Assembly: GCA_964593165.1 (NCBI GenBank)
Contig: CAZQGW010000052.1
Coordinates: 1-5,346, forward strand
Source of the DNA: an uncultured Candidatus Saccharimonas sp.
GTDB lineage: Bacteria > Patescibacteriota > Saccharimonadia > Saccharimonadales > Saccharimonadaceae
Length of the DNA: 5,346 nucleotides
Reading direction: 5' to 3'
Part shown: positions 1 through 4,075 of the stretch, one piece after another
How the letters are laid out: every line of letters starts with the position of its first letter
Position numbering within the stretch: the stretch's first letter is position 1
Translations under genes and position numbers: made by a program
The notes under the pieces: model-generated
Told to the model about the DNA's origin: nothing
Database searches by the model: none
Seen by the model: only the letters and a program-made list of their open reading frames with translations

Positions 1-64
1 CAACATTTGGAGAGATGGCTGGTTGGCCCTTCGCCCGGCCCTACTCCCACTCAATAATGTGACG

Positions 65-70: not shown

Positions 71-190
71 ATTCATTTTGTTTTCAGTTATATGGATAAC
101 ACGTAATAGTTATGTGAATGTTTTGTGTAACTATCCAGCTCGTTTTACGATGCGCATTTGTCAGCTAACTCGTTTATTTTCAATAGGGCA

Positions 191-568
191 ATGTTTGGAA
201 CTTACACGCTGTGCAACACGCACTCCGTCCTCAATGCGATTCGGAGTATCCTATATGGCAATCGAAGGGGGTGCATAGTGGTATTCAACAGCGGCAAGGC
301 ATATCACGGTTCTGTGGAAGTCAGCAACGGCAAACTGCATGGGCGCACAGGAATGACTGATTATTTCTTCTTTATCTGCCCGAAATGCGAGAACAACCAA
401 GTGTTGCGAATTCTTGAATACGAATTCAGAAATGGTGTGAAAACTGAAAGAAACGAAAAGAAGAAACCCCAGGAATTCTTTACGCTGGCGTTCCATATCT
501 ATTGTCCGAATTGTCAGTTAGAAGATTTCATAAAAATAGACAACAGCCATCAGTCTGGCGCACTGTAA
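191..568 (+). CDS. Hypothetical protein with two CxxC motifs (probable zinc ribbon). The start is uncertain.
   Basis: The frame is open from 158 to 568 and ends with TAA at 566-568. Position 158 is a TTG with no SD sequence. The first ATG is at 191, with a weak AGGG only 2 nt upstream. Another ATG at 353 would give a 71-aa zinc-ribbon-only product. The CPKC and CPNC motifs are about 50 aa apart (FFFICPKCENN ... HIYCPNCQLED) and flank a K/E-rich linker. The antisense ORF at 251-496 looks like a shadow. Confidence 0.5.
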   Translation: MFGTYTLCNTHSVLNAIRSILYGNRRGCIVVFNSGKAYHGSVEVSNGKLHGRTGMTDYFFFICPKCENNQVLRILEYEFRNGVKTERNEKKKPQEFFTLAFHIYCPNCQLEDFIKIDNSHQSGAL

Positions 569-599: not shown

Positions 600-896
600 T
601 CATTTGCGGCCTTTCCATTCGAATGCTGCTGCTGCTGCGAGCTGCATGAGATAAATCAACACCATTACGCCGATTAACCTCTCAAACATTGCCCAGTCTG
701 CATGGACCACCAAGAGAATCAATGCAACAGGGATAGCAGTAACGATACCAGTCAGGAAGCAAGCGATAACGCCAATCACGCCGAAGTAATCATGCACTGT
801 CTCGAAACATGCAGCTAGTACTCCTAACGCCCCAAGCCCAGCCGCAATATAAACGAGTACGGCGCAACCCAATAGAATAACCCTGAGTATTCTCAT
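600..896 (-). CDS. Small integral membrane protein (98 aa, about 3 predicted TM helices)
   Basis: The ORF runs from ATG (894-896) to TGA (600-602). The translation is dominated by three long hydrophobic stretches (ILLGCAVLVYIAAGLGALGVLAA; VIGVIACFLTGIVTAIPVALILLVV; LIGVMVLIYLMQLAAAAA) and has a short basic C-terminus (EWKGRK). The nearest SD sequence (GGAGAG, 912-917) is 15 nt from this ATG but is correctly spaced for a 4-codon mini-ORF that overlaps the start (see findings). Confidence 0.6.
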   Translation of the reverse strand: MRILRVILLGCAVLVYIAAGLGALGVLAACFETVHDYFGVIGVIACFLTGIVTAIPVALILLVVHADWAMFERLIGVMVLIYLMQLAAAAAFEWKGRK

Positions 897-1030: not shown

Positions 1031-1480
1031 CTACGCTGCTGTAGTCTTCCGCTTTCGCGCTGCCAGCGCAGCGTCGATTGCAGCGTCTAACTCGCCACCC
1101 GTCGCAGCCGCTTTGATAAGCTGCAACGTTGTCACTAGTTCCTTCATGTTGGCAACCTGCACGGCGTTTTTGCCTGTGCTCAACTCCAGCTTCATTGCTC
1201 CATACAGCACTTCAAAGTTGATTTTGCCTGCGCTGTCAGTCCAGTACCAGGCTTTGATTCGCTTTGCAGTCTCCTTCGTAATGCGTTCGCCAGTTTCTTT
1301 GTTAACAGTCGTTTTGGGCTGCATCACTTCGTACTCACGCCCTTCGATTTGCGCACTTGCAAGCGCAATCTGCTCGTCAATACGAGCCGCAAGTTTTGCG
1401 CGGCGCTGTGGCACAGTTGCTTTTCCGTACTTGCTTTCCCGCTTGCATACAACAAACTTCAGCTTCTGTAGTGCGTTCAT
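1031..1480 (-). CDS. Hypothetical protein (149 aa): basic N-terminus, central WYW segment, Ala-rich acidic and basic C-terminal helix
   Basis: The ATG at 1478-1480 is preceded on the minus strand by AAGGAG with a 7-nt spacer (aaggagaaacacaATG), which is the best RBS in the window. The stop is TAG at 1031-1033. The translation looks like a real globular protein (KRIKAWYWTDSAGKINFEVLYG ... GGELDAAIDAALAARKRK). I vaguely recall similar proteins from proteobacterial genomic islands but cannot name a family with confidence. The 196-aa antisense ORF at 966-1556 is a shadow. Confidence 0.8.
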   Translation of the reverse strand: MNALQKLKFVVCKRESKYGKATVPQRRAKLAARIDEQIALASAQIEGREYEVMQPKTTVNKETGERITKETAKRIKAWYWTDSAGKINFEVLYGAMKLELSTGKNAVQVANMKELVTTLQLIKAAATGGELDAAIDAALAARKRKTTAA

Positions 1481-1609: not shown

Positions 1610-2167
1610 CTAAATCATTTCAGCAACAGCACGCAATATAGCGGGATTTGGCTGTACCGCTTTAGTAAGTCGCGTCTGCCCTGCCAAAACCTTAACTGCT
1701 TTAGTATTTGCACCGCGCACCAGCAATGTGTTAAGCCATGTTTGCCTTCCTGTTTTAGTTGTTCCTTCTATACCTGCGCGTTTATATATCGCTGTGAATA
1801 CCTGGGATAAGCTTGTTGGGCTAAATGCGTGCTGCTTTTGTGTGAAAAACAACGGCACACCTTTGTGCGTGTGTGCAACACAATTAAGGGTAGTTAACTC
1901 AAACTGTTCAGCAATATATGCTTGTAGTTCCTTCTGTAGTTGCTTCGGCAACACCAAAGTTCTATTTGGCAACTGAACTTCTGTTTTTACCTCTCCATTC
2001 ATATTCAATACATCTGGTATATCTAGTGCAGCTAGTTCACTTCTCCTAATGCCACTCATATGTGTCATTAACAGCAGCATCTTGTTTCTATTACCCCATT
2101 TGCCTTGATTGGAAGTACCATTTATTACTTTATCCAGCTCTATATCTGTTAGTACTTTACTTTTCAT
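1610..2167 (-). CDS. Tyrosine-recombinase-fold protein with only the catalytic domain and a degenerate active site (pseudo-recombinase). It is a paralog of the 3500-4075 product.
   Basis: The ATG at 2165-2167 has GAGGG 4 nt upstream, and the stop is TAG at 1610-1612. The product aligns along its whole length with the 191-aa recombinase (RNKMLLLMTHMSGIRRSELAALDIPDVL vs RNRMLVLATFYAGLRAIEVASLRYCDVL; QLQKELQAYI vs QLQKELAAYI; LFFTQK vs LFYTQK; TKTGRQT vs SHSGRRS; LAGQTRLTKAVQP vs CSGHKSLAAVQRY). Both conserved Arg residues are retained. The segment carrying the beta-hairpin Lys (KAWQTKGYE) is deleted. The first His is replaced by Lys and the second by Gln. There is no Tyr anywhere in the last 50 residues. 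Confidence 0.8.
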   Translation of the reverse strand: MKSKVLTDIELDKVINGTSNQGKWGNRNKMLLLMTHMSGIRRSELAALDIPDVLNMNGEVKTEVQLPNRTLVLPKQLQKELQAYIAEQFELTTLNCVAHTHKGVPLFFTQKQHAFSPTSLSQVFTAIYKRAGIEGTTKTGRQTWLNTLLVRGANTKAVKVLAGQTRLTKAVQPNPAILRAVAEMI

Positions 2168-2259
2168 ATATCCCTCACATTCTGATACTTATAGTTATCA
2201 TCTGTCTATTGTTATGTGTACGCTTTCAGTCACGCTCGTTCATTATGATGTTAATGTCT

Positions 2260-2280
2260 AGGTGCGTTTTAAGTGCACGG
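2260..2280. repeat. Left copy of an imperfect 20-21-nt direct repeat (AGGTGCGTTTTAAGTGCACGG)
   Basis: It matches 2381-2400 (AGGTGCGCTTAAGTTAACGG) at 17 of 21 positions with one 1-nt gap. The matching blocks AGGTGCG, TTAAGT and ACGG are collinear. The two copies start 121 bp apart. Confidence 0.6.
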
Positions 2281-2287
2281 AGCTGTT

Positions 2288-2306
2288 GCCACATTGGTAA
2301 TGTGGC
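2288..2306. other. Perfect stem-loop GCCACATT-ggt-AATGTGGC (8-bp stem, 3-nt loop)
   Basis: The complementarity was read directly from the sequence. The element lies in the 221-bp gap between the HUH-like gene and the pseudo-recombinase gene. Neither strand has an adjacent U-tract, so it is not a canonical intrinsic terminator. Confidence 0.6.
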
Positions 2307-2330
2307 TGCTATGTGACACTTTTGGTTGTG

Positions 2331-2376
2331 CTAGCCCGACTGCTTTATCGAACCTGCGAACAAGGTATCGGGCTGG
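2331..2376. other. Long-loop stem-loop CTAGCCCGA-N28-TCGGGCTGG with an internal ACCT/AGGT helix
   Basis: Seven perfect base pairs form between 2333-2339 and 2368-2374. A G-U pair and a C-G pair extend the stem to 9 bp in RNA. The loop contains tandem CGAAC (2349-2353 and 2357-2361), TATCG twice (2346-2350 and 2366-2370), and a 4-bp inner helix (2352-2355 with 2363-2366). The element starts 13 nt downstream of the stop of the HUH-like gene. Confidence 0.45.
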
Positions 2377-2380
2377 CTAA

Positions 2381-2400
2381 AGGTGCGCTTAAGTTAACGG
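2381..2400. repeat. Right copy of the imperfect direct repeat (AGGTGCGCTTAAGTTAACGG), overlapping the stop codon of the HUH-like gene
   Basis: See 2260-2280. This copy covers the last codons (S-P-L-T) and the TAA stop (2389-2391) of the 2389-2898 CDS. Confidence 0.6.
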
Positions 2401-2898
2401 CGAAATGTACATGTGTTGAAACATGATGTTCTCGTCAGTACTGCCGCTCAATTTTCTAGTAATGTAGTTCATCCAGGCTCCACCACATTTCGCTTGTCCA
2501 AAATCAACAGCAAGGCTGGGTTTTCCGTCCGTGCTTTTATTCACATGTGAGTAGTACTGAATACCATCTGTGTGCTTGGCAACATCCTCAAACCGGTTCT
2601 TAATCTCCGTATCGGTAAGTGTTGCAGGAAAGCCATAGAACGCAAAGTGTATGTGTAGGCTGTCAATATCACGTTCATTATGAACTATTGGTACTACGCT
2701 TAATGGCTCGCAACCCTTTCCGTACTTCCACGTGTTTTTGCCCCATATCTGTCCGTTAAACTTAAACAAGAAACGCCTTGTTAACTGTTCAACTGCTTCT
2801 GGCGCGCGGTGTGTCCACCTTGTGTTAATTGTTGCCTCGTGTGTTACTGGCAACTTGAATAGCCAGTCTCGCAGTAGTGTTTGTTGTTTACTCTTCAT
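2389..2898 (-). CDS. Compact HUH-motif protein (169 aa), a candidate single-domain Rep, relaxase or Y1-type ssDNA nuclease
   Basis: The ORF runs from ATG at 2896-2898 to TAA at 2389-2391, with GGGAGA 12 nt upstream of the ATG. The motif order matches HUH endonucleases. The motif-I-like strand is HEATINTRW. This is followed by the spacer RRFLFKFNGQIWGKN ... LSVVPIVHNE. Motif II is SLHIHFAFYG (His-Ile-His, codons at 2647-2655). About 60 residues later comes the motif-III-like GAWMNYITRKL (Tyr codon at 2464-2466, Lys four residues on). The size is similar to IS200/IS605 TnpA and RAYT enzymes. The layout also recalls the HYH ... YLAK arrangement of inovirus-Gp2/YfjJ-like island proteins, from memory. 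The functional call rests on motifs only. Confidence 0.55.
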   Translation of the reverse strand: MKSKQQTLLRDWLFKLPVTHEATINTRWTHRAPEAVEQLTRRFLFKFNGQIWGKNTWKYGKGCEPLSVVPIVHNERDIDSLHIHFAFYGFPATLTDTEIKNRFEDVAKHTDGIQYYSHVNKSTDGKPSLAVDFGQAKCGGAWMNYITRKLSGSTDENIMFQHMYISPLT

Positions 2899-2943
2899 TG
2901 TGTTTTTCTATCTCCCTTGCTTAGATCCGAATGAACTTGCACT

Positions 2944-2955
2944 GTTTAGCTAAAC
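2944..2955. promoter_or_regulatory. Perfect 12-bp palindrome GTTTAGCTAAAC, 46-57 nt upstream of the HUH-like gene start (operator-like)
   Basis: The sequence equals its own reverse complement. The half-site TTTAGC recurs at 3229-3234 and 3296-3301 in the neighbouring control region. Confidence 0.4.
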
Positions 2956-2984
2956 CGTAATGTTATGAAAGGCAGAATTACGCT

Positions 2985-3004
2985 ACGCGCAGTAAACTGC
3001 GCGT
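2985..3004 (-). terminator. GC-rich hairpin ACGCGCAG-taaa-CTGCGCGT immediately after the stop of the small ORF. It may be a weak terminator or attenuator, or a protein-binding palindrome.
   Basis: The stem is a perfect 8 bp (6 G-C pairs) with a 4-nt loop, and it begins 2 nt after the TAA (3007-3009) on the minus strand. No U-run follows it (agcgtaattctgcc), so canonical intrinsic termination is doubtful. Confidence 0.3.
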
Positions 3005-3006
3005 GC

Positions 3007-3219
3007 TTATGTGCCTAATTGTTTGTTGGTGTCCTTTTGCAGCTTTTGCTTTAACTCTTCATTACTTTTATTCGCGTTTGCAAGCTGCTCCTGCGCTTTG
3101 CGCACCCGCTGTGCGGCATTCTGCTGCTTTGCAGTGCTGCTAAGCAGCCTGGAGCTATTTAGAAGCTTTTGTGCTTGGGCTTTTAACGGGTTTTTGGGTA
3201 CTATTTGGCTTGCACGCAT
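3007..3219 (-). CDS. Small basic Q/K/A-rich protein (70 aa) with predicted coiled-coil character, possibly translated from a leaderless mRNA
   Basis: The ORF runs from ATG at 3217-3219 to TAA at 3007-3009. It has no SD sequence (aaatatatttatATG). The translation is low in complexity but protein-like (AQAQKLL ... QRVRKAQEQLANANKSNEELKQKLQK). The opposite strand is also open over the same span but translates to Cys/Phe-rich nonsense. The coding status is uncertain. Confidence 0.4.
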   Translation of the reverse strand: MRASQIVPKNPLKAQAQKLLNSSRLLSSTAKQQNAAQRVRKAQEQLANANKSNEELKQKLQKDTNKQLGT

Positions 3220-3226
3220 ATAAATA

Positions 3227-3254
3227 TATTTAGCTTAGAAAGTTAGATTTACAA
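3227..3254 (-). promoter_or_regulatory. Candidate sigma70-type promoter placed to start transcription at or next to the ATG of the small ORF (leaderless arrangement)
   Basis: On the minus strand, TTGTAA lies at 3254-3249 and TAAATA at 3232-3227, separated by a 16-nt spacer. Seven nucleotides then separate the -10 box from the A of the ATG at 3219. This geometry is consistent with the absence of an SD sequence. It is a by-eye match only. Confidence 0.3.
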
Positions 3255-3280
3255 GTCCTTTGTATATAAGGACATACAAA
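3255..3280. promoter_or_regulatory. Nested inverted repeats GTCCTT-tgtatat-AAGGAC and TTTGTAT-N8-ATACAAA (operator or recombinase-core-like site)
   Basis: GTCCTT (3255-3260) and AAGGAC (3268-3273) are exact complements around a 7-bp spacer. TTTGTAT (3259-3265) and ATACAAA (3274-3280) form an overlapping second pair. CATACAAA recurs at 3471-3478, just upstream of the mini-recombinase RBS. The site abuts the candidate -35 box of the leftward promoter. Confidence 0.35.
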
Positions 3281-3499
3281 CACGTAAATCATTCGTTTAG
3301 CGTAAATACACCCTATCCCAGCCGTGCAACAGCACCAAAATGTTCTATTTTGTCTCTTCTATTATGTTTTAGCCAAACGCATGTATCTTTCTGAATATGC
3401 GTGGGATAGCTGTGTCGAATAAACCGCTTGTATTGGTTGCCATTTTAAATCAAACAGTTGAGCATTAAGTCATACAAAAGGTTCGATTAGGAGTCCGAT

Positions 3500-4075
3500 A
3501 TGCTAAAGCAAGCTAAGACGTTATCTAAAGCGGAAGTAAGACGCGTTCTTGATTATGTTGCAACCCGCCGGCACGCTGCACGAAACAGGATGCTGGTGTT
3601 GGCTACTTTTTACGCTGGGCTGCGTGCAATCGAAGTTGCAAGCTTACGGTACTGCGATGTTCTGGACAGCATAGGCAAAGTAAAAACTGAGATATGGTTG
3701 AAAGCTTGGCAAACAAAAGGCTATGAAGGGCGAATGGTATACGTGAACACACAGCTCCAAAAAGAGCTTGCAGCGTACATACGCGCAGTTCCAAGTGTGG
3801 ATGTGAACGCCAGGTTGTTTTACACGCAGAAACGCGGCGCCGGCGGCTTTTCAGCAAACACGCTGGTGCAGTTTTATCACACACTGTATGGTAAGGTTGG
3901 GCTAGCTGGGGCAAGCTCGCATAGTGGTAGGCGTAGCTTCTGCACAAACCTTGCAGCGAATGGAGTTGGTGTGCGCGTACTAATGGCTTGTTCTGGACAC
4001 AAATCGCTTGCTGCTGTGCAGCGGTATTTGGATGTGAACTGTGATATGGTGCACGCGGCGGTTGAACTGGCGTAG
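3500..4075 (+). CDS. Tyrosine site-specific recombinase with only the catalytic domain (191 aa, FimB/FimE-like architecture) and an intact active site
   Basis: The ATG at 3500 is preceded by TAGGAG (3488-3493) with a 6-nt spacer, and the stop is TAG at 4073-4075. The full catalytic signature is readable: Arg in AGLRAIE, Lys in WQTKG, His-x-x-Arg in SSHSGRRSF, His in SGHKS, and Tyr in AVQRYL. There is no N-terminal core-binding domain. The N-terminal HAARN ... GLRAIEV block resembles what I recall of FimB/FimE-type invertases, which are about 200 aa. Confidence 0.9.
   Translation: MLKQAKTLSKAEVRRVLDYVATRRHAARNRMLVLATFYAGLRAIEVASLRYCDVLDSIGKVKTEIWLKAWQTKGYEGRMVYVNTQLQKELAAYIRAVPSVDVNARLFYTQKRGAGGFSANTLVQFYHTLYGKVGLAGASSHSGRRSFCTNLAANGVGVRVLMACSGHKSLAAVQRYLDVNCDMVHAAVELA

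Follow-up and report, generated by a model that had tools for sequence, protein, structure and literature searches.

The window analysed here, 5,346 nucleotides of contig CAZQGW010000052.1 from an uncultured Candidatus Saccharimonas sp., holds nearly the whole of a 5,452-bp integrative element inserted at the 3′ end of guaA. Our subject is a pair of small tyrosine recombinases that this element encodes, a 191-aa protein with a complete active site and a 185-aa homolog, here called the dead copy, that has lost most of its own. A 15-bp direct repeat, CTACTCCCACTCAAT, bounds the element on both sides. It is the reverse complement of the final four guaA codons and the stop (I-E-W-E-stop); one copy lies near the start of the window and the other, 162 nt beyond its far end, at the genuine guaA stop, where it was read on L008 (5551-5565), the window's own contig at an offset of +43. 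The element length follows from these two border copies. An integrase gene adjoining the target gene, with the target end directly repeated at either border, marks the locus as an integrative element, and its GC content is 44%, compared with 65% in the host guaA. Eight open reading frames (ORFs) make up the element, few of them outside a core that consists of a full-length integrase, an HUH Rep-like endonuclease, a DUF6641 protein and the two catalytic-domain-only recombinases. An initial annotation had described the two small recombinases as a pair; they are indeed co-resident, not as a two-gene system of their own but as parts of a 5.45-kb guaA island that also carries the integrase, HUH and DUF6641 genes.

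The 191-aa and 185-aa proteins are homologous over nearly their full length (29% identity, E = 6e-24, BLASTP), and both exceed the gathering score of PF00589 (27.1 bits), the former with 66.9 bits and the latter with 36.6 bits. The family match covers residues 7-180 of the 191-aa protein and 6-166 of the 185-aa protein, and neither has an N-terminal core-binding domain. By aligning the 191-aa protein with solved XerA structures and 150 family representatives, we found a complete catalytic set: R42, K73, H141, R144, H167 and Y176. K73, part of a QTKG motif found across the family, is aligned with the first of the Lys residues in GKGGKDR of P. abyssi XerA, the equivalent of XerD K172 and lambda Int K235. 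Measured against the residues expected of an active enzyme (R-K-H-R-H/W plus Tyr), the 191-aa protein has all of them, whereas the 185-aa protein reads R, gap, K, R, Q, gap. In the latter, R41 and R141 occupy the Arg-I and Arg-II positions, K138 stands in place of His-I and Q164 in place of His-II, the β2-β3 loop is 8 residues shorter and carries no Lys, and the last Tyr is Y128, so that the final 57 residues contain none. The initial annotation had described the same end-to-end homology, the same complete R-K-H-R-H-Y set in the 191-aa protein and the same losses in its homolog (the Lys loop, His to Lys, His to Gln, no late Tyr), and on all of these we agree with it. Its statement that the two Arg residues are kept is correct for the window copy but not for the orthologs, which show K, K, K, D or R at Arg-I and, in one case, K at Arg-II; because both positions vary in this way, the dead active site is more degenerate than that annotation held. 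The codon divergence that it had pointed out in the QLQKEL / AYI block was also reproduced, with different synonymous codons in the two genes at 9/9 identical residues. Shine-Dalgarno-like sequences lie upstream of both genes. The 185-aa gene is on the minus strand, a point that the initial annotation had left unmentioned.

Judged from sequence comparison, the 185-aa gene is under purifying selection and is no decaying pseudogene, as had been proposed from its ribosome-binding site (RBS) and intact frame. Its orthologs, at 57-65% identity, are intact and have the same losses in common, and full-length ORFs are preserved in all dead-gene lineages readable end to end. The ratio of nonsynonymous to synonymous substitution rates (dN/dS), estimated by the Nei-Gojobori method, is 0.13-0.15 for the least saturated pairs (L001-L098 at dS 0.60, L097-L098 and L001-L097; dS 0.6-1.1), the other dead-gene pairs being at or close to saturation (dS of 1.7 or more). 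Corresponding values are 0.04-0.06 for the active 191-aa gene, 0.12-0.22 for the HUH gene and 0.06-0.10 for the DUF6641 gene. An alignment of the dead family contains 76 invariant positions across six sequences. Among them are R42, T136-T-K-T-G140 and T143-W-L, while R141 is R in five of the six sequences (K in P0005), and dead and active family members have the C-terminal pattern N..(L/M).R..(V/A)E in common.

The predicted structure indicates that the 185-aa protein is one that has kept the recombinase fold, in line with the DNA-binding fold assigned to it initially. Using an input alignment of 73 sequences, AlphaFold returned a model with a pLDDT of 86.1 and a pTM of 0.81 (an alignment of 6 sequences gave a pLDDT of 52.8 and was not used). 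The Foldseek neighbours of this model are XerA (the best, E = 8.5e-9, TM 0.76), Tn1549 Int, Cre, XerH and IntI. In the model, a beta hairpin (63-65 / 70-72) closes with a 4-residue turn, residues 163-174, where the Tyr-bearing helix would be expected, are coil, and the C-terminal helix is retained at 175-184.

The 169-aa protein encoded immediately ahead of the dead copy has the features of an HUH Rep-like enzyme, with an HUH metal-binding motif followed by Y-x-x-K in the canonical order. H82 (in H-I-H) and Y145 (in Y-I-T-R-K) never vary across 34 homologs, and a T-x-T-L-T-like motif lies upstream of both. PF23343 (REP_ORF2-G2P) is matched by 15 of the 34 (best E = 1.1e-7), the window protein itself having no Pfam match, and the HUH profile aligned motifs II and III with those of the Rep domain 6q1m, weakly (E = 0.1). 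A dedicated homolog search with the 169-aa protein yielded 4 sequences. Between the HUH and dead genes is a 221-bp spacer in which two conserved hairpins precede a conserved AACAGCT...TTAAAA. The first hairpin has its arms at 2330-2350 and 2357-2377, and the second is an 8-bp stem, GCCACATT/AATGTGGC, at 2288-2306. Compensatory changes affect 4 base pairs among 4 sequences, and folding of the spacer gave z = -2.3. We consider this hairpin block compatible with an origin, an origin of transfer (oriT) or a recombination site.

The gene order guaA, int (411 aa), 191-type gene (on the opposite strand), ~70-aa gene, ~169-aa HUH gene and dead gene recurs on lake and other metagenome contigs, in the 5 assessable lineages (the window, L001, L097, L149 and L150). 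In the three lineages with contigs long enough, DUF6641 lies downstream of the dead gene, with cargo in between in L097. A 191-type gene with catalytic residues accompanies the dead gene in 5/5 lineages having upstream DNA, the L150 copy being read up to a contig end that falls before His-II and Tyr. Across the same loci, identity among the active partners is 80-86%, and that of the dead partners to the window copy is 57-65%. The dead gene's tightest tie is to the HUH gene and its hairpins, both of which directly precede it at every locus where a dead gene occurs. The pairing of active and dead copies that had been proposed from the window therefore holds in all five assessable lineages, but L151 has the 191-type gene alone: its region 4097-6874 contains the 191-type gene, the 70-aa gene and DUF6641, with the HUH and dead genes both absent. 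An unrelated 308-aa membrane protein takes the place of these two genes in L151; we considered and rejected a fusion of HUH protein and recombinase, as this ORF has no similarity to either. A rearranged relic was also seen in L100 (1-3646), where the dead gene breaks off near residue 48, directly against an N-terminal integrase fragment of 65 residues beside guaA, and where the 191-type gene ends after 50 codons.

We then traced the dead copy to its closest active relative, the 198-aa protein P0128, which has the full RKHRHY set. P0128 matches the dead proteins with 143-170 bits and 38-48% identity, as against 60-90 bits for the 191-aa protein of the window, and it has in common with them a 9-residue insertion ahead of PLF(Y/F)TQK. 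In a neighbour-joining tree, the dead clade has 100% bootstrap support; it is joined by P0130, another dead form, at 80% and by P0128 at 86%, apart from the 191 clade. The island of P0128 runs guaA, int, a 67-aa ORF, DUF6641, HUH and recombinase, has no second mini-recombinase, and encodes an HUH protein that is a closer match to that of the window (E = 2e-20). By this grouping and by the HUH-linked slot of P0128, the dead gene corresponds both in position and in phylogeny to the HUH-linked mini-recombinase. The 191-aa gene, by the same comparisons, is from a second, very large lineage of the same family. The initial reading of the two genes as a paralog pair thus stands in that they are, on this phylogeny, old paralogs; they are not a local duplication that has since diverged, given that the dead clade groups with P0128.

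The dead form is rare, as few proteins matched its profile and it was missing from the surveyed genome loci. An exhaustive search of 1.84 billion representatives with the dead-family profile returned only four proteins at E ≤ 1e-30, including the active P0128. No dead-type copy was found, by scoring against dead and active profiles, in the 80 best genome loci with active members (L014-L093), which are also the loci of our genome context survey. Pattern scans for the dead family found no relatives in GTDB genomes and viral contigs, and no more than 5 loci in metagenomes. Partly or fully degenerate catalytic residues were also seen in P0130, P0132, P0145, P0148, P0160, P0165, P0168 and P0171, with sets such as KIMRHY and T-IKHY; the contigs of P0130 and P0132 are too short to show gene context. 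These other degenerate mini-recombinases suggest that catalysis may have been lost more than once in the family.

Table 1. Features of the guaA element, in window coordinates.
Feature	Position	Strand	Remarks
attR 15-bp repeat CTACTCCCACTCAAT	41..55	.	second copy (attL) is the real guaA stop
136-aa Cys-rich, zinc-ribbon-like ORF, probably cargo	158..568	+	sub-threshold zinc-ribbon matches only
98-aa hydrophobic ORF, probably cargo	600..896	-	no family match
DUF6641 protein, 149 aa, conserved core gene of the island family	1031..1480	-	
185-aa catalytically dead mini tyrosine recombinase	1610..2167	-	
Conserved non-coding block with two hairpins, candidate cis site	2250..2388	-	between the HUH and dead genes
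169-aa HUH Rep-like endonuclease, motifs H82-I-H84 and Y145-I-T-R-K	2389..2898	-	
70-aa Gln/Lys/Ala-rich ORF	3007..3219	-	kept only in window-type elements
Divergent intergenic region with conserved blocks TCAACTGTTTGATTT and TAATAGAAGAGACAAAATAG	3220..3499	.	
191-aa active-type mini tyrosine recombinase	3500..4075	+	R42, K73, H141, R144, H167, Y176
411-aa full-length tyrosine integrase, adjoins guaA	4111..5346	-	start codon is the window's last three bases

The remaining features of the element are collected in Table 1. The 136-aa ORF was seen solely in the window's own contigs, and the 70-aa gene is divergent from the 191-type gene in all its occurrences. The DUF6641 protein matches PF20346 (36.6 bits) and phrog_31551 (E = 1.8e-23). 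GC content at third codon positions (GC3) is uneven, at 0.35-0.36 in the dead and integrase genes and 0.50-0.57 in the 191-aa and DUF6641 genes, which fits a mixed origin of the element's parts. Megablast of the window against plasmid and phage collections gave no match, Rfam and tRNA scans of the window found nothing, and profile scans recognised no Xis/AlpA-type gene in the 5.45-kb element.

The wider family of the active enzyme is very large. A word-seeded search with the 191-aa protein recovered 3,921 proteins at E ≤ 0.001, and species-representative genomes yielded 553 stretches confirmed by tblastn. The best loci are mostly in Polynucleobacter, Burkholderia, Oxalobacteraceae and other Burkholderiales, and also in Acetobacteraceae, Legionellaceae and Francisellaceae. 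In the context survey, the usual arrangement is DUF6641 (-), HUH (+), 270 bp to several kb, and mini-recombinase (+); a full-length integrase is often close by, as is a tRNA gene or guaA, and DUF6641 homologs adjoin the mini-recombinase at most of the 80 loci. Related islands carry a single active mini-recombinase downstream of the HUH gene and hairpins. The backbone of integrase, DUF6641, HUH Rep-like protein and catalytic-domain-only recombinase, which occurs in Betaproteobacteria, Acetobacteraceae, Legionellaceae and Francisellaceae, is widespread and apparently undescribed; a full-text literature search for DUF6641 found no paper.

Several observations were made on these relatives in passing. 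At 11 other loci (L009, L017, L025, L027, L028, L059, L061, L066, L071, L083 and L090) a hairpin lies within ~120 nt past the HUH stop, its stem varying and an overlapping CTTTAAT being invariant; it could be an origin, a nick site or a terminator. The ORFs between the HUH and mini-recombinase genes elsewhere look like variable cargo, and in a coarse test none of them matched a recombinase profile at E ≤ 1e-3. The presence of cargo in this interval at many loci suggests a recombination hot spot there. In L028, a 97-nt direct repeat (6351-6447 and 7960-8056, 82% identity) that begins within the HUH 3′ end surrounds 1.6 kb of cargo. L009 (8801-12908) contains a complete 4.07-kb sister element with tRNA-Met repeats at both ends, whose genes are only a 58-aa ORF, the HUH Rep-like gene, an active mini-recombinase, an outer-membrane beta-barrel and an integrase. 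More distant catalytic-domain-only recombinases (~33-44% identity among the matches listed) are carried by 618 plasmids, notably of Acinetobacter, Piscirickettsia, Burkholderia and Legionella, and also occur in phiCbK-like Caulobacter phages; the plasmid and phage copies are annotated as integrase only.

The initial annotation knew of no described system built in this way. We found that such systems had already been reported: in GInts (GinC) and SEs (Tfp), a recombinase-fold protein without RHRY stands beside active recombinases and is considered a DNA binder that does not cleave (PMC10214605). The window element is like both in being an integrative element with active recombinases and a conserved non-catalytic recombinase-fold protein, and, as in GInts and SEs, it has three recombinase-family genes, one of them dead, within its 15-bp repeats. 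The comparison was made with the published descriptions of GInts (ginABCD) and SEs (intA-tfp-intB-srap), and several differences emerged. Tfp is longer than 550 aa and the recombinase-like part of Tfp and GinC is central (PMC10214605), whereas here the protein is a catalytic domain only, of 185 aa. The gin and SE genes form a co-directional four-gene operon with translational coupling, whereas in the window the active gene is divergent from the dead one, which lies downstream of HUH. SEs are stated to be without an HUH enzyme (PMC10214605), whereas an HUH Rep-like gene is present here. The case is therefore one of a non-catalytic recombinase-fold partner, a known theme, in a new setting.

The active enzyme has a further set of counterparts in the recombinase-like relaxases MobK, MpsA and TcpM, which have no core-binding or arm-binding domains (PMC8152469); of the MOB_M relaxases, 96% adjoin an integrase in chromosomal islands (bioRxiv 10.64898/2026.01.13.699239). 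The 191-aa protein shows the same traits, namely a catalytic domain only, a conserved Tyr (Y176, compared with Y179 in MobK of pIGRK) and a place in an integrase-adjacent chromosomal island. MpsA of SGI1 also needs a non-catalytic partner derived from a recombinase domain, MpsB (PMC8152469, PMC6414798), although MpsB resembles the core-binding domain (PMC6414798) and the partner here is a dead catalytic domain. By description, MobK and MpsA look closest in layout among the recombinase-like relaxases. TcpM of pCW3, the only MOB_M member compared by sequence, showed no specific similarity to the mini-recombinase family profile (hhalign probability 3%), and matched nearly the whole XerA profile (NCBIfam). 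The window element differs from MOB_M systems in that it has no known oriT or helper element and in that its HUH protein could itself be the nickase.

Other recombinase systems resemble the pair in single respects. FimB and FimE are likewise tyrosine recombinases of ~190-200 aa without a full N-terminal DNA-binding domain, but both are catalytically active, unlike the pair studied here. An invertase of the FimB/FimE type was rejected on the basis of a weak match to NCBIfam PRK09870 (38.8 bits, with a cut-off of 221), the lack of conserved flanking inverted repeats and the single orientation found in all contigs. A single inverted repeat (1577-1591 / 3379-3393, 14/15) does flank the operon of the 70-aa, HUH and dead genes; it is not positionally conserved in L001 and L097, and by our own estimate ~0.1-0.6 such repeats are expected by chance. 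A recombinase-in-trio (RIT) element was also rejected, since the trio includes two proteins of ~190 aa and an inactive member, the genes are not tandem and the border repeats are direct, not inverted. At the attP of CTX phage, the HUH Rep RstA makes single-stranded DNA and the XerC/XerD pair acts on a folded hairpin, at which XerC alone cleaves. That system resembles ours in combining an HUH Rep with a heteromeric recombinase pair whose silent partner, XerD, is structural. It differs in that XerD is intrinsically active and host-encoded, whereas the silent partner here would be permanently inactivated and is element-encoded.

We propose, tentatively but as a serious possibility, that the 185-aa protein is a non-cleaving DNA-binding subunit acting at the HUH-side cis site, with the 191-aa enzyme and the HUH protein supplying the chemistry. 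In the window-type lineage, the recombinase in the slot downstream of HUH has shed its Lys loop, its two His residues and its Tyr while retaining its fold. On this proposal, it would still recognise the candidate cis site beside the HUH gene, and the chemistry would come from the co-resident 191-aa enzyme, a member of the second family lineage, and from the HUH protein. A mixed assembly of active and dead subunits would permit cleavage of one strand or of one half-site only. The process served would be one of the excised or replicating circle, whether oriT-type or origin-type nicking or resolution, and not chromosomal integration, of which the 411-aa integrase is capable. The basic residues kept from a former phosphate pocket (R42, K138 and R141), the TTKTG.xTWL block, the shared motifs and the C-terminal helix point to binding of DNA, of a partner subunit, or of both. 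In a stricter version, the 185-aa protein would be an obligate non-catalytic protomer that makes the recombinase dimer strand-specific and single-cutting ('half-dead') at the HUH-side hairpin; this version we regard as decidedly doubtful.

A different role is suggested by analogy with GInts and SEs, in which the 185-aa protein would serve the 411-aa integrase as an accessory or directionality factor, binding near attL, attR or attP and shaping the complex that excises or integrates the element. GinC and Tfp, as recombinase-fold proteins without RHRY, are proposed to shape such complexes, and all four gin genes are required for recombination (PMC10214605, citing Bardaji et al. 2017). The failure to recognise an Xis/AlpA-type gene in the element would leave room for such a factor, and in L107 the dead gene is immediately beside the 411-aa integrase gene. 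However, the dead gene is tied by position to HUH and not to int, its placement with respect to int varying between architectures, and by description the arrangement has no architectural similarity to the gin and SE operons. P0128 and the whole active family, moreover, coexist with a separate full-length integrase, which argues that the role of the mini-recombinase family is distinct from integration. We consider an accessory role of this kind unlikely, though it deserves attention. We give similarly limited credence to the 185-aa protein acting alone, without the 191-aa enzyme, as a sequence-specific repressor or copy-control factor at the hairpin/origin or at the promoters of the module. The dead gene does have its own RBS and a promoter-like site ahead of its start codon (2208-2179, minus strand), a conserved non-coding block lies immediately upstream, and purifying selection maintains a protein that has no catalytic residues. 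Yet an active paralog is present in 5/5 assessable lineages, promoter-like sites were fewer in the scan than in shuffled sequence, and the 185-aa protein has kept its C-terminal helix, which in tyrosine recombinases docks onto neighbouring protomers.

Two further explanations carry considerably less weight. The dead clade stems from a P0128-like lineage whose members also occupy guaA, and the 185-aa protein might be a decoy or dominant-negative subunit that binds the cis site or the subunits of competing P0128-type islands at the same site and so blocks their mobilisation or replication. For interference of this general kind, SGI1-like islands are reported to inhibit helper-plasmid transfer by disturbing relaxosome assembly (PMC13635750). 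Within its own element, however, the hairpins adjoining the dead gene are conserved, suggesting a role in cis, and we think a decoy very unlikely. Slow neutral decay of a redundant and functionless copy is hardly credible: the L100 relic does contain a truncated copy, and the dead protein does evolve ~2x faster than the active one (57-65% versus 80-86% identity), but a dN/dS of 0.13-0.15, intact ORFs, the 76 positions invariant over six sequences and a confident fold model all speak for constraint.

A number of points weigh against our preferred reading of the 185-aa protein as a non-cleaving subunit beside the HUH gene. We infer both the heteromer and the cis site, and the two proteins that would form the heteromer are just 29% identical and encoded by divergently transcribed genes. 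Active family members elsewhere, at the 80 genome loci, work without a dead partner, and L151 keeps a 191-type gene (77% identity) without a dead copy; at five further dead-gene loci (L012/L013, L098, L099 and L107) the contigs end too early for co-occurrence to be judged. The recombinase tree is a neighbour-joining tree with long branches. The covariation in the hairpins comes from 4 sequences, and the hairpins between the HUH and dead genes may be nothing more than a terminator for HUH.

GInts and SEs already provide examples of pseudo-enzymes that partner tyrosine recombinases. What is new here is a small dead subunit, of 185 aa, that is clearly derived from a surviving active ortholog, P0128. 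With a dead subunit of this size, an extant active ortholog and an element of eight ORFs in 5.5 kb, the system offers a convenient case for studying a non-cleaving protomer. If a 'half-dead' recombinase does act here, it would operate within a widespread family of tiny elements that has so far gone undescribed. And if the mini-recombinase turns out to be a MobK/MpsA-like relaxase or a resolvase that works with rolling-circle replication, a large number of 'integrase' annotations in these genomes would have to be revised.

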